From: Escherichia phage Esco_phi_B-01
Sequence record: OP292222.1
Reading direction: 5' to 3' (one strand)
DNA length: 64,000 bases
This document shows positions 920-64,000 of this stretch, piece by piece; position 1 is the stretch's first letter, and every line of letters begins with the position of its first letter. The notes beneath the pieces were generated by a model. It was not told the DNA's origin. It ran no database searches and was given only the letters and a program-made list of their open reading frames with translations. Made by a program: the position numbers and the translations under genes.

Positions 920-2329
920 ATGGCTTTTACTGTAAGTATAGCCGGCGCTGCGTCTATTAAAATAGGCGAAAGCGCCAACTACACTGCTACCGCAACAGGT
1001 GCAGCTGTAGAAGGAACCGTTACATATGTATGGACCATTGACGGTGCTTCTAATCCGGAGGCAACCAATGTTTTGAAATATACCGGTGTGGCTCCAGCTG
1101 GTAAGAAAGTTTTAAAAGTAGTAGCAACTTCTACTCCAGCCGAAGGCGAACCTGAGGTAGCTGAAAAAACTTTTGAAGTTACCGTAGCTAATAAGACCAT
1201 TGGGGCTCTTTCTTTGACCTTAGACCCTACTTCTGTTTCTAAAGAAATTGGTCAATCCCAAGTTGTTACTGCTAACGTATCGGGTGTCCCTGCTGGCGCT
1301 ACAATTACTTATGTTTGGAAACGTAATACAACTGTAATTTCAGGTCAAACTGGTAAAACTATTACCATAACCGAAGCAGCGGCAGCGAATTACACTTTGA
1401 ACTGTGAAGTTACTGTTACCGCCCCTGAATATGACCCGGCTACAGCTACTAAAGGTATTGCGGTAACTTTTGTTAAGAAAACTATATCAGGCGCTTCCGT
1501 TACTTTAACACCGGCCTCAATTAGTACAGAGAAAGGCTCATCTGCACAGTTTAAAGCGGATGTAGTTGGCGCTCCTTCCGGCGTAAATGCAACTTATTCT
1601 TGGAAGAAAAATGGTTCTATTATTCCGGGCGAAAGCAGTAATACCCTTGCTGTCGATACATCTACAGTAGGTTCTTACACTATTGAAGTTTCGGTAGTCC
1701 TAAAAGGTGCGGATTATAATGATTTAACCGTTACCAAAACCGGAAGTGTAACAATTACTAAAAAGACCATGACAGGTGTTTCTGTTACTTTAGCGCCGGC
1801 CTCTATTAATACTCCGGAAGGAACTCCAGCTTCTTTTAAAGCTACCGTAGCTGGCGCCCCTGCTGGTGCTACTTTTGCATATTCTTGGAAGAAAGATGGT
1901 TCGCCAGTCGCCGGTACCACAGATACTTTAGTAGTCGATACAAGTGCTGAAGGTTCACAGGTTATTGAAGTTTCTGTTGTGGTTTCGGCTACCGACTATA
2001 ATCCTGTGACTGTCAAAAAATCTGGTAATGTAACAATTACGCCTAAAGTCGCTCCTGAACCTGAAGGCGAACTACCTTACGTCCACCCGCTGCCGGTTCG
2101 TAATTCAGCGTATATTTGGGCCGGTTGGTGGGTTATGGATGAAATCCAGAAAATGACACTTGAAGGTAAAGATTGGAAAACTGATGACCCTGATAGCAAT
2201 TATTATCTCCATCGCTATACTCTTCAAAAAATGGTTGCCGATTATCCAGAGGTTGATGTACAAGAATCACGAAATGGAAGAATTATCCATCGTTCGGCTC
2301 TTGACACAGGTATAATTTATTTTTACTAA
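920..2329 (+). CDS. hoc: Hoc outer capsid decoration protein, four Ig-like repeats plus C-terminal capsid-binding domain
   Basis: 469 aa; four repeats of pattern TY.WK..G....G...TL.V.....G.Y..EV.V; C-terminal WAGWWVMDEIQ...YPEVDVQESRNG. Confidence 0.8.
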   Translation: MAFTVSIAGAASIKIGESANYTATATGAAVEGTVTYVWTIDGASNPEATNVLKYTGVAPAGKKVLKVVATSTPAEGEPEVAEKTFEVTVANKTIGALSLTLDPTSVSKEIGQSQVVTANVSGVPAGATITYVWKRNTTVISGQTGKTITITEAAAANYTLNCEVTVTAPEYDPATATKGIAVTFVKKTISGASVTLTPASISTEKGSSAQFKADVVGAPSGVNATYSWKKNGSIIPGESSNTLAVDTSTVGSYTIEVSVVLKGADYNDLTVTKTGSVTITKKTMTGVSVTLAPASINTPEGTPASFKATVAGAPAGATFAYSWKKDGSPVAGTTDTLVVDTSAEGSQVIEVSVVVSATDYNPVTVKKSGNVTITPKVAPEPEGELPYVHPLPVRNSAYIWAGWWVMDEIQKMTLEGKDWKTDDPDSNYYLHRYTLQKMVADYPEVDVQESRNGRIIHRSALDTGIIYFY

Positions 2330-2343
2330 TTTTGGCTAAATAA

Positions 2344-2372
2344 AAACGGGAGAGCGAAAGCTCTCCCGTTTT
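2344..2372. terminator. Bidirectional hairpin terminator between convergent hoc and hoc-like gene
   Basis: cgggagagc-gaaa-gctctcccg stem-loop flanked by A and T runs. Confidence 0.6.
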
Positions 2373-2373
2373 G

Positions 2374-3234
2374 TTATATGACATTTAATGTCAGGTGCTT
2401 CCTATTCAAAATATACCCATTTCTTGATTCCTGTATTTCTACATCAGGATATCGTGACAAAAGTTCTGCCACTTTTGCGAGCTCACACTTATACCTAAAA
2501 TTGCTATCTTCTATATTGATAGCCCAATCCTGGTTTTTATCAAGGGCACCTTTTATCTCATCCAACACCCACCAGCCTATCCACATGTGGGCCCTATTTC
2601 GGCCACCTGGATAAGACAAATACTGATTTAAATCATGTGAGTATATAAATGGACACACTTCAGGTTCAGGTAAATCACCATCCATAGGCATAATATCTAC
2701 CGTAACTATATCATGATACGGATTATAAGCACCTTCGGCTGTGGCAGAGACATTAAGAGAATATGTCCCATACATAGAAGGCTTTATATCAACATCTAAA
2801 TCCTTTACATTTGAAACCATTTTATCATATTTCCACCATTCACACTCTACTTCGGCCCAGGGTGTGGTACCCATAGAAATTAAAGGTTGTAAAGAAACTT
2901 TTTGACCTATTTCAGCCTTTATGATAGCATCTAAATTTTCTATGGAAATAACTATATCTCTAGGCTCTATCCCGATTTCCAAAACAAAATCTTCGCTTTG
3001 AAAAGTCTCTTGTGTTAGCTTATCAGTGGCTATCGCATAATAAGTCCCTGCTGCAGGAAACCCTACATCCCAAAGATTTAGATACATCGGGTCTTCTTTA
3101 TCTAATAATGGAACGTTTACACCGTTTTTGTACCATTTTATATCGACATCGGTTAAAGATTCAGATAAAACAGCCCTAAGAGTTACCGTTCTCCCAACCA
3201 ATTCATAATGAGGTCCATTTACTTGTATAGACAT
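2374..3234 (-). CDS. Hoc-family paralog: Ig-like N-terminal domains plus Hoc-type C-terminal domain
   Basis: 286 aa; C-terminal HMWIGWWVLDEIK...YPDVEIQESRNGYILNR aligns with Hoc C-terminus in this window; Ig-like motifs IKWYKNG, AGTYYAIATD. Confidence 0.75.
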   Translation of the reverse strand: MSIQVNGPHYELVGRTVTLRAVLSESLTDVDIKWYKNGVNVPLLDKEDPMYLNLWDVGFPAAGTYYAIATDKLTQETFQSEDFVLEIGIEPRDIVISIENLDAIIKAEIGQKVSLQPLISMGTTPWAEVECEWWKYDKMVSNVKDLDVDIKPSMYGTYSLNVSATAEGAYNPYHDIVTVDIMPMDGDLPEPEVCPFIYSHDLNQYLSYPGGRNRAHMWIGWWVLDEIKGALDKNQDWAINIEDSNFRYKCELAKVAELLSRYPDVEIQESRNGYILNRKHLTLNVI

Positions 3235-3245
3235 GCTACCTCCAA

Positions 3246-4253
3246 TTAATAAGGGAAACTAACCATTTTAACCAATATAGGTTTATTAGAATCTACACTG
3301 CGCCCGTGTTGAAATACCGTTATTTCTGAAATTGTTTTAGAACCCCATTCCTTTAAGGTTATATTAATAGGACGTAGCCCGTTATATGCCGCACTTACTA
3401 TAACAAATGAGCCTGTAGGAGACAAAGTCTTAGTTCCGCCACCGGTAGTAACCGTTCCACCCGAAACACTAGGAGCAACAAAGTGATAATCACAATATCG
3501 GGTAGTCCCACCTTTACTTAAAATGCTGTATTCTATTTGGTTGTTAACCAATCTAACTCTAAGAACCGTATTGGCGACCCCAGGTATTTTTATTTCGCCG
3601 TACCCAGCAGCAACGTTGGTATACTTATGGAATGAAAACAAATCTGTACCATCTTTACCAGGTTCGCCTTGAGGACCCTGAGGACCTAGAGGGCCAGTAG
3701 CTCCGTCAAGTCCATCAATCCCATCCACCCCAGGAGGACCTTGAACACCTTGCGGACCCTGCTCACCATCTTTACCCGGGATACCCTGTTCGCCTTGTGC
3801 ACCCTGAGAAGCCAATAAGGCCCAGTAAAGGCTGTTTTCTTCAGCAGGATTATTACCGGTAGAATCCTGAACGCAAAAATAAGAAGCCCCATTGTACCCT
3901 ACTGCATCATCCTTAACATAGGCTGTTGCAGCACTCCATGTTCCTTTCCAATTTAGACCCACAGGGCCTACAGGACCAGCCGGGCCTCTCGGTCCTACAA
4001 TGCTTTCACCTTTAGGGCCAGGGATACCAGGGGATAACATTTCTTCGGATATCCCCAAATGAGCCAGAACTTCAGCTCTTCCGGATTTACTAACCAAGCC
4101 TAAGCCATACGAATTACTCCCTACCAATCTTGCCGGGTTTATAAGACTTTCTTTAGTAAGAATTTTTTCAAAAGGGATAACAGTATCCGATTCCTTTAAA
4201 GCAATACCGGAAAAGGTCCCTCGACCGTCATGACCAAAAATAGAATCTGCCAT
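3246..4253 (-). CDS. Collagen-like repeat protein with embedded CBM5/12-like carbohydrate-binding motif
   Basis: 335 aa; Gly-X-Y runs (GIPGPKGESIVGPRGPAGPVGPVG and about 17 triplets GAQGEQGIPGKDGEQGPQGVQGPPGVDGIDGLDGATGPLGPQGPQGEPGKDG) flanking W..TAY..DAVGYNGASYFCVQ...W; GGAG RBS. Confidence 0.75.
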   Translation of the reverse strand: MADSIFGHDGRGTFSGIALKESDTVIPFEKILTKESLINPARLVGSNSYGLGLVSKSGRAEVLAHLGISEEMLSPGIPGPKGESIVGPRGPAGPVGPVGLNWKGTWSAATAYVKDDAVGYNGASYFCVQDSTGNNPAEENSLYWALLASQGAQGEQGIPGKDGEQGPQGVQGPPGVDGIDGLDGATGPLGPQGPQGEPGKDGTDLFSFHKYTNVAAGYGEIKIPGVANTVLRVRLVNNQIEYSILSKGGTTRYCDYHFVAPSVSGGTVTTGGGTKTLSPTGSFVIVSAAYNGLRPINITLKEWGSKTISEITVFQHGRSVDSNKPILVKMVSFPY

Positions 4254-4649: not shown

Positions 4650-5657
4650 ATGTTCAAGAAATATAGCAGTCTGGAAAACCACTACAACAGTAAGTTTATC
4701 GAAAAACTCCGTACCAATGGTTTGACTGGTGGCGAATGGGTAGCACGTGAGAAGATTCATGGAACCAACTTTAGTTTAATCATAGAACGTGACGCAGTCA
4801 CATGCGCCAAGCGCACGGGTCCAATTCTCCCTGCTGAAGATTTCTATGGTTATGAAATTGTACTTAAGAACTATGCTGATTCTATTAAATCCGTACAAGA
4901 TATTATGGAAACTTCGGCAGCCGTATCTTATCAAGTTTTCGGTGAATTCGCTGGAACAGGCATTCAGAAGAACGTTGATTACGGTGATAAAGATTTTTAT
5001 GTATTTGACATTATTGTTACAACCGAAAGTGGCGATGTGACTTATGTCGACGATTATATGATGGAATCATTTTGTAAGACGTTCAAATTTAAAACGGCGC
5101 CACTTTTAGGTCGTGGTAAATTTGAAGACCTTATTAAATTGCCAAATGATTTGGATTCCGTCCTTCCTGATTATAATTTTACAGTAGATAATGTCGGGCT
5201 AGCCGAAGCTAATGCTCATGTGTGGAATGCTGAAGCAAAAGGCGAAGTATTTACCGCTGAAGGGTACGTATTAAAACCTTGTTATCCACTTTGGCTCCCT
5301 AATGGAAATCGTGTAGCGATTAAATGTAAGAACTCTAAATTCAGCGAGAAGAAAAAGTCTGATAAGCCTATTAAAGTTGCAGTAGTATTATCTCAAGACG
5401 ATTTAGATTTATTACAACAATTCACTGATTATGTGACTGTTAACCGTATTAACAACGTTATCAGTAAGATTGGTGAAGTATCACCTAAAGATTTCGGAAA
5501 GGTAATGGGACTGACGGTCCAAGATATTTTGGAAGAGGCAGCCCGTGAAGAATTAGAATTAACCGATGCAGAAAACCCTGTTGAAGTTAAAAAGCAGCTC
5601 GTTGAGTGTGTAAAAGATACGCTACGGGCCGTGTGGATTGAATTAGTATCCAAATAA
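4650..5657 (+). CDS. rnlB: RNA ligase 2 (Rnl2)
   Basis: 335 aa; near-colinear with recalled T4 Rnl2 ([20 protein letters not shown]..., KIHGTN adenylyltransferase motif I). Confidence 0.9.
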
Positions 5658-5662
5658 ACAGT

Positions 5663-5692
5663 AAAGGGACCTTACGGTCCCTTTTATTTTTC
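5663..5692. terminator. Bidirectional hairpin terminator between rnlB and gp24 paralog
   Basis: gggacc-ttac-ggtccc then T-run. Confidence 0.6.
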
Positions 5693-6964
5693 TAGTGGTG
5701 GAAGTTTAACACCAAGATAAGAACTCAACTGGCTTTGGTTAGCCATTTTGTCCATATCAGAGCCATCAATAATGCGGGCTTCTTTATCGTCCTTAGCGAC
5801 GGTATAAGGGTTTGCAGTCAATGCATAACGAGCAAGCAATGCTACTGTAGGTTGTAAGCTTTCCGGGTCAACAATAACCTTAAATTCACCTACTGAAGTA
5901 TCACCTTCTTCATCAACCACATCCAAACCTTCCGTATAAGGCGCATAATATAAAGATGCGACCGTCTGTCCTTCACCCATCTGGGCATTTACACCAACAA
6001 TAACATAATCACATGGACTATTCATATCAGCATAAAGAGGCAGACCATTCTTTAATACACCATAGGCCAATTCGTCTTGGTCTTCCTTTTTCTCAACCCA
6101 ACCGGAAGCGGCGAGAATAGCAGCACAACGAGAACTAGCTACTGCATAAGTCCCAGCGAAAGAAGTTTGACGTTGGACGGCAGAGTTCATCTCACACATG
6201 TAATAATATAATGTACGAGCACGGTCCTGGGCGTTATCGTAACGTGGGTTGGTAAGGTCTAATACACCTTTTTCAGAAACACCTTGGACTTTAAAACGAG
6301 AACTCACCGTAATTAATGACTGTAATACATCCTTATTAATTTCTTCTGCCATTTGGATGCCTAGCAGATTTTCAACGAAATTAGGAGCATTAAACCCGTT
6401 TGATTCTAGGTCCTGGGCTAATTCGACTGTCAATGAAGTTTTCAGTTTACGTGATTTAACTTCAGATTGCCATTTATCAATACGGAAGCCTGCTTCAGCA
6501 ATTTCAGGATGGCCTTGTTCGAATTTAGAAGTAATAGCAGCATCCGATACCATACGAATATGTCCGGCTGCCACTGCTTCAGAAATAACTTCACCGAGGT
6601 CGGTTTCTGTGGTTCCAGCGAAAGGAGATGCTTCTAGAACTTTAAACACCACACTTTCAAACTGGAACATATCGCCGGCTGCATAAGCTGTAGACGAATC
6701 GGCAAATTCAGGAATATTTTCACGTTCCGACATACCAATCTGGCCCGCAAATGTAGCACCACCAAGATAAGTCATTTTGTCGTCAGGGTTAAGTACACGA
6801 ACCCCGTACAGAGCAGCAACAGGTTGGCTTGTTTTTTGTTCAGCAACTAGGGCTTTAAAGATTCGTTTATTAGTTGCTTGGGTGTATGAAAGAAGAGCAG
6901 GACGGCCAACCGAGTTGGCAGCCGTCAATGTGGATTCTTTAATTAGGTCTATAATCTTAGACAT
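5684..6964 (-). CDS. Second gp24-family head vertex protein (diverged paralog)
   Basis: 426 aa; gp24/gp23 fold motifs shared with adjacent gp24 (RIDKWQSEVKSRKLKT, ELAQDLESNGF, EINKDVLQSLITVS) but strongly diverged. Confidence 0.85.
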   Translation of the reverse strand: MSKIIDLIKESTLTAANSVGRPALLSYTQATNKRIFKALVAEQKTSQPVAALYGVRVLNPDDKMTYLGGATFAGQIGMSERENIPEFADSSTAYAAGDMFQFESVVFKVLEASPFAGTTETDLGEVISEAVAAGHIRMVSDAAITSKFEQGHPEIAEAGFRIDKWQSEVKSRKLKTSLTVELAQDLESNGFNAPNFVENLLGIQMAEEINKDVLQSLITVSSRFKVQGVSEKGVLDLTNPRYDNAQDRARTLYYYMCEMNSAVQRQTSFAGTYAVASSRCAAILAASGWVEKKEDQDELAYGVLKNGLPLYADMNSPCDYVIVGVNAQMGEGQTVASLYYAPYTEGLDVVDEEGDTSVGEFKVIVDPESLQPTVALLARYALTANPYTVAKDDKEARIIDGSDMDKMANQSQLSSYLGVKLPPLEK

Positions 6965-8247
6965 TAATCAGCCTCGTAAATAATTGCTGGAAGTTTAACA
7001 CCAAGCAGATAAGACATATTACTCTGTCCGGCCATTAAATCCATATTGGTGGCATCGATAACACGAGCTTCTTTATCGTCTTTAGCTACGGTGTACGGGT
7101 TAGCGGACAGTGCATAACGAACCATCAGAGAAATAGAAGGCTGTAATGAATCCGGGTCGACAATAACCTTATAAGCACCAACGTGTTCTGGGTCGTCTAA
7201 ATCCAGGCCTTCTGTATACGGGGCATAGAAAATAGAACCGACAACTTCATTACCGCCATAGTTCTCTTTAACACCTACGATAACATAATCCAATGGGCTG
7301 TTAACGTCACAGAACAATGGTAATCCATTCAACAAATAACCATAGGCAGTTTCTGGGAGCCAATTATTATCTTCAGGTCTATGTTTTAACCAGCCAGAAC
7401 CTGCAAGCATTGCAGCCACACGACTTGAAGCCACAACAAACGTACCGGAATAAGAAGTAGTTTTCTGGATTTCAGAATTCATCTCACAAACAATTTCATA
7501 AAGTTTACGTGCAGATTCTGGAGCACTATCATAAGTCAAATCGATGATGCCATTATCAGATACACCCGTAACTTTATAGCGTTTAGATACGGTTATCAGA
7601 GATTGCAGAACGTCTTTATTAATTTCATCTGCCATTACTGTAGCCAGGAGGTCTTCTAAGAATGCAGGGGCGTCGAAGCCATTTGATTCCATATCCTGGG
7701 CCAATTCTACAGTCAAAGCAGTCTTCAATTTACGGGTCTTAACAGGAGCATTCCATTTATTAACCTGGAATACAGCATCAGAGATTTCTACATTACTCGC
7801 TTCGAATTTAGTGGTATGGGCTGCATCAGGAACCAGACGACATGTTAATGACACCAAACCTTCTTGAAGGGCATCAGCCAATCCTGTAGCGCTAGTGGAT
7901 GCGAGTGGGCTTGCTTGAAGAGCCTTATAAACCACATTCTGATACTTAAAGTAGTCACCCTTGGCAATCGCCTGGGCTTTATCTGTGAGTTCTGGGATAG
8001 TTTCACGGTCTTTAGAACCAACTTCACCACCATAAACAGCACCAGTTTGGAAACTGAATTCATTATCAGGGGTAAGATATTTGACACCGTACAATGCAGC
8101 AATAGGCTGACTAGTACGTTGTTCAGCGATGATATCGCGATAAATTAGTTTAGTGGTAGCACGGGTCAAAGCAACAAGATTAGGGCGACCCAATGAGTTG
8201 CTGGTAGTAGTTGTTGACTCGCGCAGTAATTCGTTAATCTTTGCCAT
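6964..8247 (-). CDS. 24: Head vertex protein gp24
   Basis: 427 aa; MAKINELLRESTTT... matches recalled T4 gp24; stop overlaps start of paralog at 6964. Confidence 0.9.
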   Translation of the reverse strand: MAKINELLRESTTTTSNSLGRPNLVALTRATTKLIYRDIIAEQRTSQPIAALYGVKYLTPDNEFSFQTGAVYGGEVGSKDRETIPELTDKAQAIAKGDYFKYQNVVYKALQASPLASTSATGLADALQEGLVSLTCRLVPDAAHTTKFEASNVEISDAVFQVNKWNAPVKTRKLKTALTVELAQDMESNGFDAPAFLEDLLATVMADEINKDVLQSLITVSKRYKVTGVSDNGIIDLTYDSAPESARKLYEIVCEMNSEIQKTTSYSGTFVVASSRVAAMLAGSGWLKHRPEDNNWLPETAYGYLLNGLPLFCDVNSPLDYVIVGVKENYGGNEVVGSIFYAPYTEGLDLDDPEHVGAYKVIVDPDSLQPSISLMVRYALSANPYTVAKDDKEARVIDATNMDLMAGQSNMSYLLGVKLPAIIYEAD

Positions 8248-8663: not shown

Positions 8664-10223
8664 TTAGATACCTTTAACATAAACGCGACGGAAGTAACCA
8701 TTCAGACCGAGGCTGTTAACGATGTCAGGCATACCGCTCTGAATACGTTTGGTAGGAGCCTGTGCAGACGGGTCAGCGAACGGGTTAATACCGATACCGT
8801 AACGAGTTTTGAAGCCCATTACCGGCTGGAAGTTCTTCGGATCGGAACCGCGCAGTGGGGTAAGTGCAACGTAAGGAGCGTAGTAGATACCTGCGTCCAT
8901 TTCGTTGGAACCTTTATAACCGATGGTGAAGTAATCAGCACGGGCATACTGGTCGATGTAAACGCGATATTTACCACCAAGAACACCGGCAAATACTGCT
9001 TTAGTGGTGTCAACGTTGAAACCTTGACCCAGACCTTGAGCTGCATAACTTACAGAAGTATCAACTGCAGCCAGTACGTTAACTACGTTACGGGAAGCGA
9101 TGATGAAGTTACCAGCACCACGACCGGTCTGACGAGCGATTTCGGCTGCTTCTTTATCAATCTGGAACAGAAGGGCTTTAAAGCTCTCACCGGCCCAACG
9201 AGCACCACGGATATCAATCGGGTCCTGGAAGTCAAACACACCAGCTTTAGCGCCAACGGTGTTGGTCATACCAGATTTACCAACCTGTGCAGAGTAGTTA
9301 ATCCAATCGATAACTTCACGGTTGATTTCGAGCATAATTTCGGTAGCAAGGATACCGGACAGTTCAGCATCTGCATCCATACCGTGTACTGCACGAAGGT
9401 CCTGTGCCAGTTCGATGGAATAGCTTGCTTTCAGCTGACGGGATTTAGCTTCGATAACTTGTTTATCGATACGGAAGCCCATTTCGTTCCACGGGTTATC
9501 CTGAGAACCGTTAAAGCCTTCCTGAAGTTCAGCGATAGAAGTAGCCATACCTTCAGCCAATTCAGCCAGCTGACCAGCTTCCAACAGAGCAGTTACGGCA
9601 ACATCCAGTTTAGCGGCATCAGTAGCAGCAGCATCAACGGTTACGGCTTCAACAGCCTGGAAGTGTGCAGCACCGGTAGCTTCGAAGAAGTGAGAATAAA
9701 TTTTACCAACTTCCAGAACTTTACCTGCAGCCAGTGCTTCAAAAGTCTGAGCAGCGCCCTGACCAGAGAACATAGCGTTCGGAGCATACATCGGGTGGAA
9801 AGCTTCTTTAGCGCCAGCAGCGATAGGGTCTTTACCGTATACTGCACGCAGTGCAAATACCTGGCCGGTAGGGTTATTCAGAGGCTGAACACCACAAATA
9901 TCAAAAGCAATCAGATGAGGAATAGCACGACGAACCATACCCATTACTGCCGGCCCAATCTGAGTTACAGCACCAGAGGTCTGGCCAGCTGCGATATTGG
10001 TAGCATCATAACCGTGGTCACCACCGATTTCAGCTTCGGTCAGGAAAGAACCAAATGCTTCAGAGATTTTTTCGTCACGATATTCAGGAGCGGTCAGAAT
10101 ATCTTGTTCCTGGTTTTCGAAAATTTTAGCGATGATAGCTTGTTTAGAAGCACCAACGATTTCAGGAAGAGCTTCGTTTTCCAGCAGAGCGGACCATTTT
10201 TGAACTAATGCATTCTTTTTCAT
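8664..10223 (-). CDS. 23: Major capsid protein gp23
   Basis: 519 aa; long stretches identical to recalled T4 gp23 (AEIGGDHGY..., QIGPAVMGMVRRAIP, DNPWNEMGFRIDKQVIEAKSRQLKA). Confidence 0.97.
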   Translation of the reverse strand: MKKNALVQKWSALLENEALPEIVGASKQAIIAKIFENQEQDILTAPEYRDEKISEAFGSFLTEAEIGGDHGYDATNIAAGQTSGAVTQIGPAVMGMVRRAIPHLIAFDICGVQPLNNPTGQVFALRAVYGKDPIAAGAKEAFHPMYAPNAMFSGQGAAQTFEALAAGKVLEVGKIYSHFFEATGAAHFQAVEAVTVDAAATDAAKLDVAVTALLEAGQLAELAEGMATSIAELQEGFNGSQDNPWNEMGFRIDKQVIEAKSRQLKASYSIELAQDLRAVHGMDADAELSGILATEIMLEINREVIDWINYSAQVGKSGMTNTVGAKAGVFDFQDPIDIRGARWAGESFKALLFQIDKEAAEIARQTGRGAGNFIIASRNVVNVLAAVDTSVSYAAQGLGQGFNVDTTKAVFAGVLGGKYRVYIDQYARADYFTIGYKGSNEMDAGIYYAPYVALTPLRGSDPKNFQPVMGFKTRYGIGINPFADPSAQAPTKRIQSGMPDIVNSLGLNGYFRRVYVKGI

Positions 10224-10244
10224 GTGTTGTATAACCTTATTAAA

Positions 10245-11060
10245 TTAAGAAATTCGAGATGCTGCGATTGCAGACAGGTCCGCGAAGGACAGGGTAGGCT
10301 TAGCGCCTTTTTCTTCAACTGCTTCCGAAATATAATTCAGTGCTGCAGCATCGTCTTCAGTTTTATTTATAGCGGCTTCGGTGATTGGTTTTTCAACGTC
10401 AGTCTGGCCTTTAACCATTTCAACGATAGCGCCAATTTTTTTACCAAATGCATCGGAATAATCCATGCCTTCTACCAGAGAACTAACTTTTTCTTTCTGA
10501 GATTCAGTCAGGTCTTTAGTTGCTTCAGTCAACGCAACTTCACGCTGTACGTAATTAATATATGCGTCACGCTTACCAACTTCTTCGAACAGACGAGCGG
10601 TTTCATCTTTCTGCTCTTGGAGTTCTTCTTCCATTTCAGCAACAACATCCACTGCTTCTTCTGGAACAACCACATTGTGTTCAACAAACAGTTCTTTCAT
10701 ACCCATCAACATGGATTCGAACAGTTCGGCTTTAATACCTTTATCAACAGCCAGCTGGTTTTCAGCCATCCATTCTTTAGCGACGTGGTCAAGGAAACGA
10801 CCGGCAGCTTCTTGGATTTTCTTATCAGCTTTTTCTTCAGCTTCTTCTTTATTTTTCTCAACTTCTTCTTCCGCTTTTTCAGCGATTTTAGCGATGTGAG
10901 ATTCAGCCAGTTTAACGGCGTGTTGCTTGACGGTAGCTTCGAATACAGTGCCGAAAGTTTCTTTTGCTTCCGGAGAAATATTAACTGATTCGAAAATACT
11001 GTCAAGAGCAACGGAAGCATCAATATTCTGTGCTTCGGCAATCAGTTGTTCTTTAAGCAT
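10245..11060 (-). CDS. 22: Prohead core scaffold protein gp22
   Basis: 271 aa, acidic coiled-coil, between gp21 and gp23. Confidence 0.85.
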   Translation of the reverse strand: MLKEQLIAEAQNIDASVALDSIFESVNISPEAKETFGTVFEATVKQHAVKLAESHIAKIAEKAEEEVEKNKEEAEEKADKKIQEAAGRFLDHVAKEWMAENQLAVDKGIKAELFESMLMGMKELFVEHNVVVPEEAVDVVAEMEEELQEQKDETARLFEEVGKRDAYINYVQREVALTEATKDLTESQKEKVSSLVEGMDYSDAFGKKIGAIVEMVKGQTDVEKPITEAAINKTEDDAAALNYISEAVEEKGAKPTLSFADLSAIAASRIS

Positions 11061-11090
11061 TTTGTAGTCCTGTTGTTTAGATAATAATAT

Positions 11091-11726
11091 TTATAACGCT
11101 TTTTTCATGGCCTCTGCGAGAGCCATAAAGGCGTCATCGGCACTGGTATCGGTATCTACCGTTTGTGATTCTGTAATTTGTTTAGGAGTTACATAAGCAT
11201 CAGGAGCAGATGGACCCCATACTGCATCAACACCGACGGTTAATTTATAACCTTCGTTTACACGCTTATATCCTTTATTGGTTTCGGTTAAAGAACCTAG
11301 ACCACGAGAACTAACACCAGGCACCCAACCAGCTCTAATATTAGCAGCTAGTTTATCACCAGGACCATGGTCGCCTTCAATAATACGAGCACGTCCATAA
11401 ACGTCATTACCTTTCCACCACATATCTTCAATAATAATAGCGGCTTGCATAGGGTCGACGTTAGCACGAGGCGGATGATTTAATTCTCCTAAAGCTTGTT
11501 TAGTAGCAACCTGTTCTGCCATATAATCGGCAACAGCTTTTTCCAAAATAGGTTTTGGATAAAGGCGTTTATTACGGTTAACCACTTCGGCTTGCATGAA
11601 TATGCCTTCTATATAAAGGCCCGGGGCAAGTCCAGAATCTTTTCCATCATGAGATTCCAACATCGGAACCCCATCGATAATTTCACCTGGTTGTCCCCAA
11701 TGTTCGATGAGCAATTCAGGTTTCAT
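11091..11726 (-). CDS. 21: Prohead core protease gp21
   Basis: 211 aa; matches recalled T4 gp21 (GEIIDGVPMLESHDGKD, NHPPRANVDPMQAAIIIEDMWWKGNDVYGRAR). Confidence 0.95.
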   Translation of the reverse strand: MKPELLIEHWGQPGEIIDGVPMLESHDGKDSGLAPGLYIEGIFMQAEVVNRNKRLYPKPILEKAVADYMAEQVATKQALGELNHPPRANVDPMQAAIIIEDMWWKGNDVYGRARIIEGDHGPGDKLAANIRAGWVPGVSSRGLGSLTETNKGYKRVNEGYKLTVGVDAVWGPSAPDAYVTPKQITESQTVDTDTSADDAFMALAEAMKKAL

Positions 11727-44148: not shown

Positions 44149-44222
44149 GGCCCTGTAGCTGGACGGTCAAGCGAGCGACTCATAATCGCTGGATGGTGGT
44201 TCGATTCCACCCAGGGCCACCA
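44149..44222 (+). tRNA. tRNA with CAU anticodon (Met or lysidine-modified Ile)
   Basis: Hand-folded cloverleaf: acceptor ggccctg/cagggcc, anticodon stem agcga/tcgct, loop cuCAUaa, T-arm ggtgg-ttcgatt-ccacc, encoded CCA. Confidence 0.8.
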
Positions 44223-44226
44223 ATTT

Positions 44227-44301
44227 GGATGTGTAGCTCAGTGGTAGAGCAGTTGACTGTTAATCAATTGGTCCATGGTTCGAATCCATGCATGTCCGCC
44301 A
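44227..44301 (+). tRNA. tRNA-Asn (GUU)
   Basis: D-arm gctc-agtggta-gagc, anticodon loop cuGUUaa, T-arm catgg-ttcgaat-ccatg, 7-bp acceptor with two G-U pairs, encoded CCA. Confidence 0.8.
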
Positions 44302-44305
44302 AATA

Positions 44306-44381
44306 CGAGGCATAGCTCAGAAGGAAGAGCAACGGTCTTCTAAACCGTAGGTCGTAGGTTCGATCCCTACTGTCTCGACCA
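44306..44381 (+). tRNA. tRNA-Arg (UCU)
   Basis: Anticodon stem acggt/accgt, loop cuUCUaa, T-arm gtagg-ttcgatc-cctac, encoded CCA. Confidence 0.85.
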
Positions 44382-57652: not shown

Positions 57653-58009
57653 ATGATTAAACAGATGACTATAGCGCTTATGTTGATTGCTCCGGGAGTA
57701 TTAGCATCACAGGTTGATGATACAAATAATTCAATTGTCGAGTATGCCACCCGTACAGCAAAAGATTATTGTCATCCGAGTAATACTGAATGTGTTATTG
57801 AATTCAGTTCAAAAATAACAGCTGCTTTTAAAGATGGACAGAACGACGTCGAGCATCGCCGAATGAAAGAGAAAACTCTTTCTAAAAGATACGAGCAACG
57901 TCTAAACGTTACTGAATGTGTTCCGTCTGATAAAAAGTACAAAGAAATGTGCGCGTCTATGGTAGACAGACTCGTTGACTCTTACAACCGAGGGCTAAAC
58001 TCTAAATGA
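57653..58009 (+). CDS. Small secreted protein
   Basis: 118 aa; signal-peptide-like N-terminus; four Cys. Confidence 0.45.
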   Translation: MIKQMTIALMLIAPGVLASQVDDTNNSIVEYATRTAKDYCHPSNTECVIEFSSKITAAFKDGQNDVEHRRMKEKTLSKRYEQRLNVTECVPSDKKYKEMCASMVDRLVDSYNRGLNSK

Positions 58010-58485
58010 TTATTGATTATATTAAGGGCGATATCGTCGCCCTGTTTCTTCAAGGTAATATTATTGCACACGGGTGCAACTGTTTTCATACTATGGGTTC
58101 AGGTGTTGCCGGTCAATTAGCAAGGGCCTATCCTAAAATATTAGAAATTGATAAGACCACTACTGAATACGGTTCTCGTGATAAATTAGGCGACATGTCT
58201 ATTGTTTTTAAACATAAGCCTAATGGATTTGCAATGTGCTATAATTTATACACCCAATACGAACCAGGCCCTAATCTTGATTACGGTGCTTTAGTAAACT
58301 GTATGATAGAATTAAATCTACAAGCAAACGACCTTTTGTTTAAACCAAGAATTTATATTCCTCGTATAGGTTGTGGTATTGCTGGCGGTGATTGGGACAA
58401 GGTTTCTAAATTAATCGACATGTTTACTCCTGATATTGATTTAATAGTGGTGGATTATGAAAGCACATTACCCACATCCGTTTGA
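58006..58485 (+). CDS. Macro domain protein (ADP-ribose binding / hydrolase fold)
   Basis: 159 aa; IAHGCNCFHTMGSGVAGQLAR and PRIGCGIAGGDW resemble macro-domain Gly-rich loops. Confidence 0.65.
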   Translation: MIIDYIKGDIVALFLQGNIIAHGCNCFHTMGSGVAGQLARAYPKILEIDKTTTEYGSRDKLGDMSIVFKHKPNGFAMCYNLYTQYEPGPNLDYGALVNCMIELNLQANDLLFKPRIYIPRIGCGIAGGDWDKVSKLIDMFTPDIDLIVVDYESTLPTSV

Positions 58486-60667: not shown

Positions 60668-60672
60668 TCAAA

Positions 60673-60698
60673 GGTCTCACTTCGGTGGGACCTTTTTT
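60673..60698 (+). terminator. Intrinsic terminator
   Basis: ggtctcac-ttcg-gtgggacc then TTTTTT. Confidence 0.6.
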
Positions 60699-60707
60699 CG
60701 TTTTAGT

Positions 60708-60764
60708 GTTTACATCCTCTAGGAACGTGATACTATAGACCTATCAACTAATGAGGAGAAAGTT
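60708..60764 (+). promoter_or_regulatory. PeSL-type early promoter
   Basis: GTTTAC, 17 bp, TACTAT, AGACCTATCAA. Confidence 0.55.
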
Positions 60765-62074: not shown

Positions 62075-62527
62075 ATGATTATCAATTCAAACTCTTGGCA
62101 CGTTAAATTACACGACCGTTTTTACGACCGTCATTCTCGACCACACTCTTTGTGTGCTTATTTCTGGAAAATGGTTTGGGCTTGTTTTGCTTGTGCAGTT
62201 GTTGCAGGTAGTACGCTTTTTGGATTAACTGTTGCAGGAGCTGGTGTATTAGAGCATTTCTTTGTATTAAGTACTCCCGTTCTGTTGAGCCTCGGGTTTG
62301 TTTTAGGGTTGACTGCAATAGCTCTTATTATTGCGCTATCCATCGGTTTGGCATTCGGTGCGATGAATTTACACGCATGGTATGATGCCCGTAAAGAAGA
62401 AAAGGAATGGGAACGAATTAAAGCTAAACGTGAAGGAAAGGAAATTAAAGAAAATATAGTCGTCCAATACATTAAAGCTCGTAAATCTAAGATGTGTCCT
62501 GTAATTCACTTCGAGAACAAAGAATGA
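62075..62527 (+). CDS. Membrane protein (multiple TM helices)
   Basis: 150 aa; AAGGAAA RBS. Confidence 0.5.
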   Translation: MIINSNSWHVKLHDRFYDRHSRPHSLCAYFWKMVWACFACAVVAGSTLFGLTVAGAGVLEHFFVLSTPVLLSLGFVLGLTAIALIIALSIGLAFGAMNLHAWYDARKEEKEWERIKAKREGKEIKENIVVQYIKARKSKMCPVIHFENKE

Positions 62528-63534
62528 GAACAGTTATGAAAGGCTACTTCGGTAGCCATCTTTATGGAACAAGTACTCCGGAATCCGATGTCGATTTTAA
62601 AGAAATCTTTGTTCCACATCCGCGTGATATTCTGTTAGGTACGGCAATGAACCATACCAACCTGAACACGAATAACACTGCTTCCAAAAACACTAAAGAT
62701 GATGTTGACCATGAGCTTTACAGCCTGAAATATTTCTTTAAACTGGCTGCTGAAGGCGAAACCGTTGCTCTGGATATGCTCCACACTCCACCTGAACTAG
62801 TGGTTAAATCTGATTTACCTGATGTATGGAAATTTATCCAAGATAACCGTTCACGTTTCTATACAACTAACATGAAAGCCTATTTAGGGTACGTCCGTAA
62901 GCAAGCTTCTAAATATGGTGTTAAGGGTTCTCGATTGGCTGCTCTGCGTGGTGTACTGGCAATTGTTAACCAGATTCCTGAACAGTGGGTCGATTATCAA
63001 GAAGGCATTCCAGATCGTTTACGTCGGACTAAGGTAGAAGATATCAAGCACAGGCTCCCTGAAAACGAGTTTTGCGAATGGGTATTTCATAACCATGAGA
63101 AAACAGGTCCTCAAACGTTCTATACTGTCCTCGGACGTAAGTACCAAACTACTTTGTCATTGGTCGAGCTTAAGCAATCTCTGAATAAACTCGATGCCGA
63201 ATATGGCGAACGTGCTCGTAAGGCTGAAGCCAATGAAGGTATTGACTGGAAAGCTCTGAGCCATGCTTATCGTGCCGGGTACCAATTGATGGAAATCTAC
63301 CAAACTGGTGACTTGGTATTCCCATTGCGTGAAGCCTCTATCATTAAGCTGATTAAAGCTGGTGAATTACCATTTAAAGAAGTTCAAGAACTTCTTGAAG
63401 ATACTGTCGATTTAGTTGAAGTTCTGGCCATCCAGGCAGCTAAGAATGGTATGCCTGCGAAGGTGGACATGAAGTTCTGGGACAAGTTCGTCGAAGAGGT
63501 GTACCTTGACAACCACAACTCTTATTACCGTTAA
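62521..63534 (+). CDS. Putative Pol-beta-type nucleotidyltransferase-domain protein
   Basis: 337 aa from ATG 62521; N-terminal YFGSHLYGTSTPESDVDF matches hG[GS]x9-13[DE]h[DE]h. Confidence 0.55.
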   Translation, partial: RMRTVMKGYFGSHLYGTSTPESDVDFKEIFVPHPRDILLGTAMNHTNLNTNNTASKNTKDDVDHELYSLKYFFKLAAEGETVALDMLHTPPELVVKSDLPDVWKFIQDNRSRFYTTNMKAYLGYVRKQASKYGVKGSRLAALRGVLAIVNQIPEQWVDYQEGIPDRLRRTKVEDIKHRLPENEFCEWVFHNHEKTGPQTFYTVLGRKYQTTLSLVELKQSLNKLDAEYGERARKAEANEGIDWKALSHAYRAGYQLMEIYQTGDLVFPLREASIIKLIKAGELPFKEVQELLEDTVDLVEVLAIQAAKNGMPAKVDMKFWDKFVEEVYLDNHNSYYR

Positions 63535-63542
63535 CTAAATTT

Positions 63543-63566
63543 AGGACCCTTCGGGGTCCTTTTTTG
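63543..63566 (+). terminator. Intrinsic terminator
   Basis: aggaccc-ttcg-gggtcct then TTTTTT. Confidence 0.6.
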
Positions 63567-63584: not shown

Positions 63585-63650
63585 GTTTACACTCTCGTAG
63601 AGCATGTTATTATGGACCTATCAAATCTACTGAGTGAAACGGAGAATATA
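63585..63650 (+). promoter_or_regulatory. PeSL-type early promoter
   Basis: GTTTAC, 17 bp, TATTAT, GGACCTATCAA. Confidence 0.5.
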
Positions 63651-64000
63651 ATGTTAACTATCAAAATCAACAAAGGTATCTATCGCGGTAATGAAATCTC
63701 TGGTACGTTCATGAGTTCAGGTAAAACCTGGTTCCCTAATAAAATTCATGAATCCGAAGCTCATCTCGGTGATGGCAAGGTATTTGTACAGATTGATGGT
63801 GTTGAACGTGGTGTGTGGGTGTTCAAATGCGACATCGAAATGGAAGGTGCTGAAGCTCATGCAATGGTTACTGAATCCTCTGAAGAAATGAAACATCGCA
63901 TCAACAAACGTTTTAAAGTAATGAACATGATGACTAACGGAATCATCGATGGTAAAATTCGTTCCCTTATCATCTCTGGTGCCGCAGGTATTGGTAAAAC
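63651..64000 (+). CDS. Hypothetical protein, N-terminal part only (runs off window end); P-loop-like GAAGIGK at the end
   Basis: ATG 63651 with GGAGAA RBS; open to position 64000. Confidence 0.4.
   Translation, partial: MLTIKINKGIYRGNEISGTFMSSGKTWFPNKIHESEAHLGDGKVFVQIDGVERGVWVFKCDIEMEGAEAHAMVTESSEEMKHRINKRFKVMNMMTNGIIDGKIRSLIISGAAGIGK

Follow-up and report, generated by a model that had tools for sequence, protein, structure and literature searches.

RlaP proteins belong to the DNA polymerase beta (Pol-beta) superfamily of nucleotidyltransferases. A role in RNA repair has been predicted for them since 2016, the year in which Burroughs and Aravind reportedly named the family for its linkage to RNA ligases. 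Here we describe a gene of this family in a 64,000-nucleotide stretch of DNA from Escherichia phage Esco_phi_B-01 (record OP292222.1); this whole stretch is called the window below. The gene is near-certainly the ortholog of T4 nrdC.11, and its product is rather likely to be an enzyme of RNA 3'-end repair, adding nucleotides to damaged RNA, chiefly tRNA, during infection, as judged from its sequence and by analogy with described RlaP enzymes. Databases and papers already contain the gene, its family and the role predicted for it, and the gene call itself is routine, nrdC.11 being a conserved accessory gene of the T4 type whose family has a known name.

According to Iyer et al. 2021 (PMC7824862), RlaP is the commonest enzyme of its kind in jumbo phages, its distribution mirrors that of RNA ligases, and the phage RlaPs are predicted to put back the nucleotides that are lost after cleavage by, for example, RloC. 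Two RlaPs of Pseudomonas encoded between rtcB and rtcA, PfRlaP from P. fluorescens and PaRlaP from P. aeruginosa, were assayed in a preprint of December 2025 (10.64898/2025.12.29.696909). These enzymes label RNA but not DNA or protein (E. coli proteins were left unlabeled), add one or two nucleoside monophosphates or deoxynucleoside monophosphates to an RNA 3'-OH with little base specificity, and prefer Mn2+ or Co2+ as the metal. On a cleaved-tRNA mimic they prefer the 3' end located at the break, and they raised, that is partly restored, the aminoacylation of a repaired tRNA that was short of one nucleotide. The crystal structure of PfRlaP comprises a nucleotidyltransferase domain and a helical domain with a cleft between them. 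The same preprint assigns T4 NrdC.11 to the Pfam family of these enzymes but to cluster 5 of the sequence similarity network, whereas the tested enzymes are in cluster 1a.

Comparison of the bacterial RlaPs of the RtcB-RlaP-RtcA operon with NrdC.11 revealed several common features: (i) both types belong to the same Pfam family, (ii) both carry the GS...DxD signature, (iii) both seem to follow one plan, an N-terminal nucleotidyltransferase core and then a helical domain, and (iv) the bacterial gene adjoins RtcB, while homologs of NrdC.11 are likewise found beside RtcB and RNA ligases. The two types are nevertheless distant, with only the first 56 columns aligned profile to profile, and NrdC.11 exceeds the bacterial type by about 70 residues, for which an internal insertion appears to account. 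The activity has been demonstrated for the bacterial type only and is predicted by relation for NrdC.11, for which we infer the RNA substrate, the number of added nucleotides, the metal and the biological role.

The T4-type nrdC.11 gene and its protein family

The open reading frame (ORF) extends from 62494 to 63534 on the + strand of the window. Its likely start is the ATG at 62524-62526, from which residues are numbered below, and the frame from this codon to the stop at 63534 yields a product of 336 amino acids (aa), the length of most database orthologs. The initial annotation had recognized the frame and its motif but placed the start at 62521, an AGA one codon too early. A 100% identical protein is already present in a public collection; the identity is 98.8% to the protein of phage QL01 and 81.5%, over the full length, to that of T4.

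The window comes from a Dhakavirus, a T4 relative of the JS98/JS10 group. Over its last 4 kb it is 94.7% identical in DNA to JS10 and has the gene order rI, rI.-1, mobD.3, mobD.1, membrane protein, nrdC.11 and nrdC.10 in common with it. The orthology to T4 nrdC.11 follows from this gene order and from the protein identities to QL01 and T4. The T4 protein (PHROG 388) has the same length, and its gene, which like that of the window lies downstream of tk and rI, is likewise flanked by the mobD.1/membrane-protein genes and nrdC.10; nothing of substance distinguishes it from the window protein. The gene immediately upstream varies among phages; in some it encodes a homing endonuclease, and in the window its product is a small membrane protein.

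The protein scores 48.1 bits (E = 1.6e-12) with the Pfam family RlaP (PF10127, 'RNA repair pathway DNA polymerase beta family'), for which the curated cut-off is 23; the match covers only residues 8-136, aligned to positions 24-143 of the 249 positions of the model. Essentially all close homologs of the protein have a precomputed PF10127 assignment. The match to PHROG 388 ('nucleotidyltransferase') is end to end (E = 1.2e-131), and the JS10 ortholog is already called 'nucleotidyltransferase' in RefSeq. Thus the question raised by the initial annotation, which had held that sequence alone could not decide among several functions, is largely answered by a family lookup: the protein has a named family, a T4 ortholog and a RefSeq description. 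NrdC.11 belongs to PF10127 by the curated cut-off, and we infer equivalence in substrate choice.

Using tblastn, the gene was found in 1549 phage records, 1442 of them at a query coverage of at least 80%, with hosts from genera that include Escherichia, Klebsiella, Aeromonas, Acinetobacter and Vibrio. Among 1.84 billion cluster representatives there are 3302 relatives, 835 of which score below 1e-30; the best 150 of the 3302 are mostly about 300-350 aa long. Many ortholog records in GenBank and UniRef (e.g. P0007, P0008, P0022, P0034 and P0055) carry the name 'thioredoxin', and one record each is labeled 'HNH homing endonuclease' and 'ArsR family regulator'. The 336-aa protein matched no thioredoxin model in the Pfam scan; the thioredoxin label was evidently taken over from the gene name nrdC.11, is wrong, and needs correcting in these entries.

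The Pol-beta signature, hG[GS] followed 9-13 residues on by [DE]h[DE]h, is present as F9-G10-S11 and D22-V23-D24-F25, as the initial annotation had noted. Canonical RlaP profiles align with the stretch YFGSHLYGTSTPESDVDF in their GS...DxD region. In an alignment of 101 homologs, the lowest of which is 27% identical, G10, S11, Y14, S21, D22, D24, P31, E64 and D84 are invariant in the first half of the protein and G122, Y123, Y131, K134, R137, K206, G228, R230, D241, K243, S246, H247, R250, P267 and K278 further on. The active-site residues G10, S11, D22, D24, E64 and D84 are invariant together with 20 further residues. The signature in NrdC.11 is far beyond chance. Two residues, E64 and D84, qualify as the third conserved carboxylate expected of the Pol-beta superfamily, and either may be the third metal ligand of the active site, as suggested by their invariance and by the structural model. 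The invariance of the signature residues, together with the retention of a full-length gene in 1442 of the 1549 phage records, indicates that selection probably maintains an active enzyme.

An AlphaFold2 model computed from the 101-sequence alignment (mean predicted local distance difference test score, pLDDT, 85; predicted template modeling score 0.68) begins with an alpha/beta core at the N terminus; a long helix comes next, then a loop of low confidence together with a small three-stranded sheet, and the C-terminal part is a helical domain, the helices of which have a pLDDT of about 86-96. The core has the alpha/beta nucleotidyltransferase fold of the Pol-beta superfamily. A Foldseek search against the Protein Data Bank (PDB) placed at the top kanamycin nucleotidyltransferase, Hailong HalB, the nucleotidyltransferase-like structure 3c18, AadA/AAD(9) and LinB, all of them weak matches (best E = 0.016, template modeling (TM) score about 0.3); kanamycin nucleotidyltransferase ANT(4') and HalB are the closest solved structures. 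Among predicted viral structures, the model matched many 'nucleotidyltransferases' of phages and giant viruses, with TM scores of up to 0.70. The fold resemblance of the model is limited to Pol-beta-fold nucleotidyltransferases, so the superfamily assignment of the initial annotation, which motif and family model likewise uphold, stands. A single-sequence search of the PDB with the 336-aa protein gave no match, and a profile search of the PDB gave chance-level matches only, among which the MNT antitoxin 5yep (E = 0.32) was the best of relevance.

The initial annotation described the part that follows the motif as about 300 aa of unknown function. This is partly right; this part comprises the remaining nucleotidyltransferase core and a conserved helical domain of the same family. 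By analogy with the description of the PfRlaP crystal structure, the helical domain at the C terminus presumably forms the NTP- and RNA-binding side of the cleft. The canonical RlaP profile, built from 55 sequences of 260-280 aa, matches NrdC.11-type sequences in the N-terminal core and, in a few members, also weakly in a second, collinear stretch, where model positions 124-226 pair with residues from about 190 to 320. This pattern suggests homology of the helical domains and, in the phage type, an insertion of about 70-80 residues relative to the canonical RlaP of 260-270 aa. The middle segment of the model, about residues 118-212, may represent this insertion.

RNA-repair genes beside NrdC.11 homologs and the predicted function

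To describe the genomic context of the family, we tallied the neighbors of the homologs, with jackhmmer seeds, over 119 non-redundant viral loci, 74 of them T4-like and 45 others. A CCA-family gene lies within 1 kb of the homolog in 24 of the 45 non-T4-like loci, nearly always directly upstream and on the same strand, and in 1 of the 74 T4-like loci. Nine of ten sampled 'CCA' ORFs were confirmed with Pfam, the tenth being the HD-kinase of locus L078, and the counts allow for that. In phage relatives of about 30% identity, the gene follows a gene of the CCA-adding-enzyme family (PF01743, often with an HD domain); this order is found in Rheinheimera phage Barba31A, Vibrio phage 11895-B1 and six more long contigs from metagenomes. 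Genes for RNA ligase or for other RNA-repair proteins stand beside the homolog in L078, L086, L088, L089 and L095. In L078, where the protein is 40% identical, an HD-kinase, a small ORF and Rnl1 are followed by the homolog, which starts 18 nucleotides past the end of the ligase gene. Complete repair cassettes are present in some loci; the order is CCA enzyme, homolog, metallophosphoesterase, Rnl1 and kinase in L086, and RNA ligase, Pnkp, CCA enzyme and homolog in L089.

Class II CCA-adding enzymes and poly(A) polymerases (PF01743) likewise belong to the Pol-beta superfamily and add untemplated nucleotides to RNA 3' ends, and they are the commonest immediate neighbors of NrdC.11-type genes outside T4-like phages. 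The window protein does not match PF01743, and the two are different families; no CCA-adding gene was seen near nrdC.11 in the phage lineage of the window. Since CCA-adding and NrdC.11-type proteins are encoded by separate adjacent genes, successive or complementary steps are suggested.

In 35 loci from bacterial genomes and metagenome-assembled genomes (MAGs), RNA-end enzymes are the sole recurring theme among the neighbors. An NrdC.11-type gene directly precedes a canonical RlaP gene in Terasakiella (L093, 6001-7771), a Rhodospirillales MAG (L095, 1770-4892) and a gammaproteobacterial MAG (L096, 2972-4766), the canonical paralogs being full-length PF10127 proteins (E = 1e-63 to 1e-73); in L095, RtcB is directly upstream and both RlaP types follow it. 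Because the two types stand side by side in three bacterial loci, they are probably not redundant, and their presence in one operon suggests a division of labor. A CCA enzyme adjoins the NrdC.11-type gene in two MAG loci (L115 and L116). In a Desulfovibrio MAG (L105, 5293-9048), a Thg1-family gene is directly downstream of the NrdC.11-like region, which lies inside a much longer open frame of 857 codons; there are similar loci in other Desulfovibrio sequences. Thg1, a 3'-5' polymerase of the tRNA-His guanylyltransferase type that repairs tRNA 5' ends, occurs in 3 of 23 cellular loci scanned, and RtcR is also a recurrent neighbor.

In a 146-kb viral contig (L090, 4815-8984), a resolvase gene and an IS605 OrfB/TnpB-type gene lie between the CCA-adding and NrdC.11-type genes, and two more TnpB-type genes are located downstream at a distance of a few kb. 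The gene pair, which is otherwise conserved, seems to have been interrupted by a mobile element.

In the proposed mechanism, NrdC.11 would be made early in infection and would perform an accessory step of phage RNA repair. It would bind an NTP and a divalent metal via D22, D24 and either E64 or D84 as the third invariant carboxylate, would extend the 3'-OH of damaged RNA, chiefly tRNA, by one or a few nucleotides, and would in this way replace the nucleotides taken off by host defense ribonucleases. Pnkp and Rnl1, encoded elsewhere in the genome, would then reseal the anticodon loop with its full complement of bases; alternatively, the host CCA-adding enzyme would complete a trimmed 3' tail. 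The incompatibility with RtcB that was noted in the preprint would not arise here, because a 5'-phosphate ligase such as T4 Rnl1 needs the 3'-OH that NrdC.11 would leave. JS10, the closest annotated relative, has genes pseT (polynucleotide kinase-phosphatase), rnlA (RNA ligase 1), stp and cef in other parts of its genome; pseT and rnlA lie about 85 kb from nrdC.11 in this lineage. Thus partners for ligase-based repair exist in the lineage. Among the functions offered by the initial annotation, that of an anti-defense factor comes closest to the evidence, although its specific sense, RNA-end repair against host ribotoxins, had not been named.

If nucleotides are indeed restored before ligation or CCA addition, NrdC.11 would complete the T4 tRNA-repair pathway and would explain how phages survive nucleases that remove bases rather than merely cut. 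T4-type phages are best suited for a functional test, as they carry the classic Pnkp/Rnl1 pair and nrdC.11 is dispensable in the laboratory.

Several observations weigh against this assignment. The neighbors of nrdC.11 in the window are a membrane-protein gene and, past a terminator and a promoter-like site, a gene for an AAA-type ATPase, not RNA-repair genes, and an RNA-repair gene lies within 5 kb in only 6 of the 74 T4-like loci. With hhalign, the NrdC.11-type profile aligned to the canonical RlaP profile over the first 56 columns only, with a probability of 36%; NrdC.11 is longer than the tested RlaPs, and its Pfam match ends at residue 136. Because the profile alignment is restricted to the N-terminal motif region, we do not claim full-length equivalence to the tested enzymes. 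A full-text literature search on nrdC.11 returned no functional study of NrdC.11; the preprint labels the T4 protein as being of 'unknown function' and presents the in vivo role even of the bacterial RlaP as a proposal (10.64898/2025.12.29.696909). Finally, the T4 block from nrdC.11 to mobD.3 is lost in viable genome-reduced mutants (PMC9825161). Since this block is dispensable in the laboratory, any role of nrdC.11 would be conditional.

A variant of the repair function, which we regard as rather unlikely, is that NrdC.11-type proteins form a distinct RlaP branch that rebuilds tRNA 3' tails rather than broken anticodon loops. Such enzymes would re-add the discriminator-side nucleotide or nucleotides cut off by tail-trimming immune nucleases, after which a CCA-adding enzyme would restore the CCA; T4-like phages would depend on the host CCA-adding enzyme for this step. 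This variant is suggested by the adjacency to CCA enzymes (24 of the 45 viral loci and the two MAG loci), by the Thg1 neighbor and by the pairing with canonical RlaP. The nuclease Cas12a3 trims tRNAs by 2-4 nucleotides, up to the discriminator base (PMC12851939), and after trimming of this extent a nucleotide would need replacing before the CCA could be rebuilt. The mechanism of tail repair is speculative. In the literature searched, which did not include Burroughs and Aravind 2016, we found no description of NrdC.11 and a CCA-adding enzyme as a two-enzyme counter-defense module of phages.

Alternative functions considered for NrdC.11

The chemistry expected from RlaP, untemplated addition of one or two nucleotides to an RNA 3'-OH with little NTP specificity, could also serve attack. 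NrdC.11 might add nucleotides to the 3' ends of host tRNAs or defense RNAs and thereby inactivate them, in the manner of the MenT nucleotidyltransferase toxins, which reportedly extend tRNA acceptor stems (PMC10435456). The location of the gene in an early-type unit with a predicted promoter, at the time when host shut-off functions are made, would suit such a weapon. However, the homologs repeatedly adjoin genes for RNA-end restoration (CCA-adding enzyme, Rnl1 or Rnl2, Pnkp, RtcB and Thg1), no toxin-antitoxin partner was seen, and no MenT, AbiEii or other defense nucleotidyltransferase model was matched in the PADLOC scan, so that we give offensive tailing only a small chance. The same scan bears on the nucleotide-signal synthase that the initial annotation had listed. 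An enzyme of this sort would make or mimic an oligonucleotide or cyclic-nucleotide immune signal, for example an oligodeoxyadenylate like that of HalB, which would keep a host effector off, and the remote fold match to HalB is what suggests it. This match has 13% identity and a TM score of 0.24 and covers the generic nucleotidyltransferase core; no model of CD-NTases, other signaling enzymes or other defense systems was matched with PADLOC or Pfam, the curated match being RlaP, and no effector, sensor or sponge gene is adjacent in the window or in the loci examined. The PADLOC scan returned only two 17-residue motif matches to an unrelated candidate family (E = 0.005 and 0.05). With no CD-NTase family matched in Pfam, no CD-NTase among the fold matches and no effector gene nearby, a signaling function is highly improbable.

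Nucleotidylylation of a small molecule or a protein, either of the aminoglycoside or lincosamide type or by an AMPylating antitoxin of the MNT type directed against a host HEPN ribonuclease, is suggested by sub-threshold matches. All of these are below the family thresholds (the MntA cut-off is 60 bits), with TM scores of about 0.3 and identities of 9-14%. The tested RlaP enzymes, moreover, left E. coli proteins unlabeled (10.64898/2025.12.29.696909), no HEPN partner gene is present, and antibiotic resistance makes no sense for a lytic phage; we therefore consider this activity very unlikely. The antibiotic- or nucleotide-modifying enzyme proposed by the initial annotation finds no matching antibiotic-nucleotidyltransferase or MNT family model. 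Among the individual families, MNT/MntA antitoxins were rejected, as model NF047752 scored 15.7 bits against its cut-off over 18 residues, the protein has 336 aa against about 100-140 and no HEPN gene is adjacent; KNTase, ANT and Lnu nucleotidyltransferases were rejected for want of a family-level sequence match or a close structural match. That NrdC.11 is a catalytically dead protein with a structural or regulatory role, or a decaying ORF, would agree with the tolerance of T4 to the nrdC.11-mobD.3 deletion (PMC9825161) and with more than 20 years of T4 genomics without an assigned function. The signature residues and 20 further positions are, however, invariant down to 27% identity, and the full-length gene is kept in 1442 of the 1549 phage records; hence this explanation is almost certainly wrong.

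Gene surroundings in the window

Six same-strand genes are found between the upstream promoter-like site and the end of nrdC.11 (Table 1), and this site is the probable start, as judged from the sequence, of a six-gene early unit that ends with nrdC.11. The upstream genes of the unit include a y05I/MobD.1-like putative transcription factor, a protein with a DksA-type zinc finger and a membrane protein; in the JS10 annotation and Pfam, they provide no functional clue for nrdC.11. The 150-aa ORF directly upstream has a weak hydrophobic Pfam match and is called 'membrane protein' in JS10. Its overlap with the nrdC.11 start suggests that the two genes may be translationally coupled.

Table 1. Positions in the window of nrdC.11, its parts and the flanking signals
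Feature	Positions	Strand	Description	Basis
Terminator-like hairpin	60670-60695		precedes the promoter-like site
Promoter-like site	60709-60736	+	TTTACA, 16 nucleotides, TACTAT; upstream TG	consensus match only
ATGA overlap	62524-62527	+	nrdC.11 start with the stop (62525-62527) of the upstream 150-aa ORF (62075-62527)	sequence read
nrdC.11 ortholog, coding sequence	62524-63534	+	RlaP-family nucleotidyltransferase	ORF, Pfam, PHROG, T4/QL01 identity, JS10 synteny
Signature YFGSHLYGTSTPESDVDF	62545-62598	+	residues 8-25; G10-S11 62551-62556, D22 62587-62589, D24 62593-62595	invariance
Invariant carboxylates E64 and D84	62713-62775	+	E64 62713-62715, predicted strand 61-67, pattern H-E-L; D84 62773-62775	invariance, model
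Middle segment	62875-63159	+	about residues 118-212; long helix, low-confidence loop, three-stranded sheet	model
C-terminal helical domain	63160-63531	+	about residues 213-336; invariant G228, R230, D241, K243, S246, H247, R250, P267, K278	model, alignment
Intrinsic-terminator-like hairpin	63543-63560	+	AGGACCC-UUCG-GGGUCCU, then T run; ends the unit with nrdC.11	sequence
Promoter-like site	63586-63613		before nrdC.10

The adjacent gene nrdC.10 (63654-64000, where it runs off the window; 10196-11176 in locus L001) encodes a 326-aa P-loop ATPase of the AAA type with the motif GAAGIGKT, and its matches to AAA_14, AAA_22 and STAND-NTPase families are all sub-threshold. Its adjacency to nrdC.11 is conserved among T4-like phages. 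The two genes are separated by a terminator and by a promoter-like site of nrdC.10's own, for which reason nrdC.10 was rejected as a partner in one operon.

C(UUCG)G tetraloops are present in both flanking terminator-like hairpins and in a hairpin within nrdC.11. The latter, at 62542-62557 and 18 nucleotides past the start codon, has a stem of 6 bp without mismatch around a UUCG loop (GGCUAC-UUCG-GUAGCC; about -9 kcal/mol) and occupies codons 7-12, which encode the G-Y-F-G-S motif. The same codon choices are found in L017, L022, L032, L037 and L047, though their upstream sequence differs, and are missing in T4 proper, L007 and L045, which encode the same peptide. The hairpin was rejected as a part of the feature, being present in a subset of orthologs only.

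Elsewhere in the window, three clustered tRNA genes (Met-CAT, Asn-GTT and Arg-TCT), each with a DNA-encoded 3' CCA, are located at 44149-44381. The 159-aa ORF at 58006-58485 corresponds to T4-type tk.4, the product of which is described in JS10 as a phosphatase that has an A1pp (macro-domain) motif; the substrates of macro domains are ADP-ribose derivatives, among them by-products of NAD-dependent RNA repair.

Among the homolog-bearing genomes, Vibrio phage 11895-B1 (L083, HQ634157) has portal, CCA-adding-enzyme and terminase products annotated as far shorter than the genomic spans of their genes (1396-3979, 5344-7525 and 9643-11330, respectively). A separate ORF lies within the span of its CCA gene, and in another assembly (L082) an HNH_3 ORF lies within the span of the portal gene. 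This arrangement suggests that essential genes of this phage contain several introns or insertions of a similar kind.

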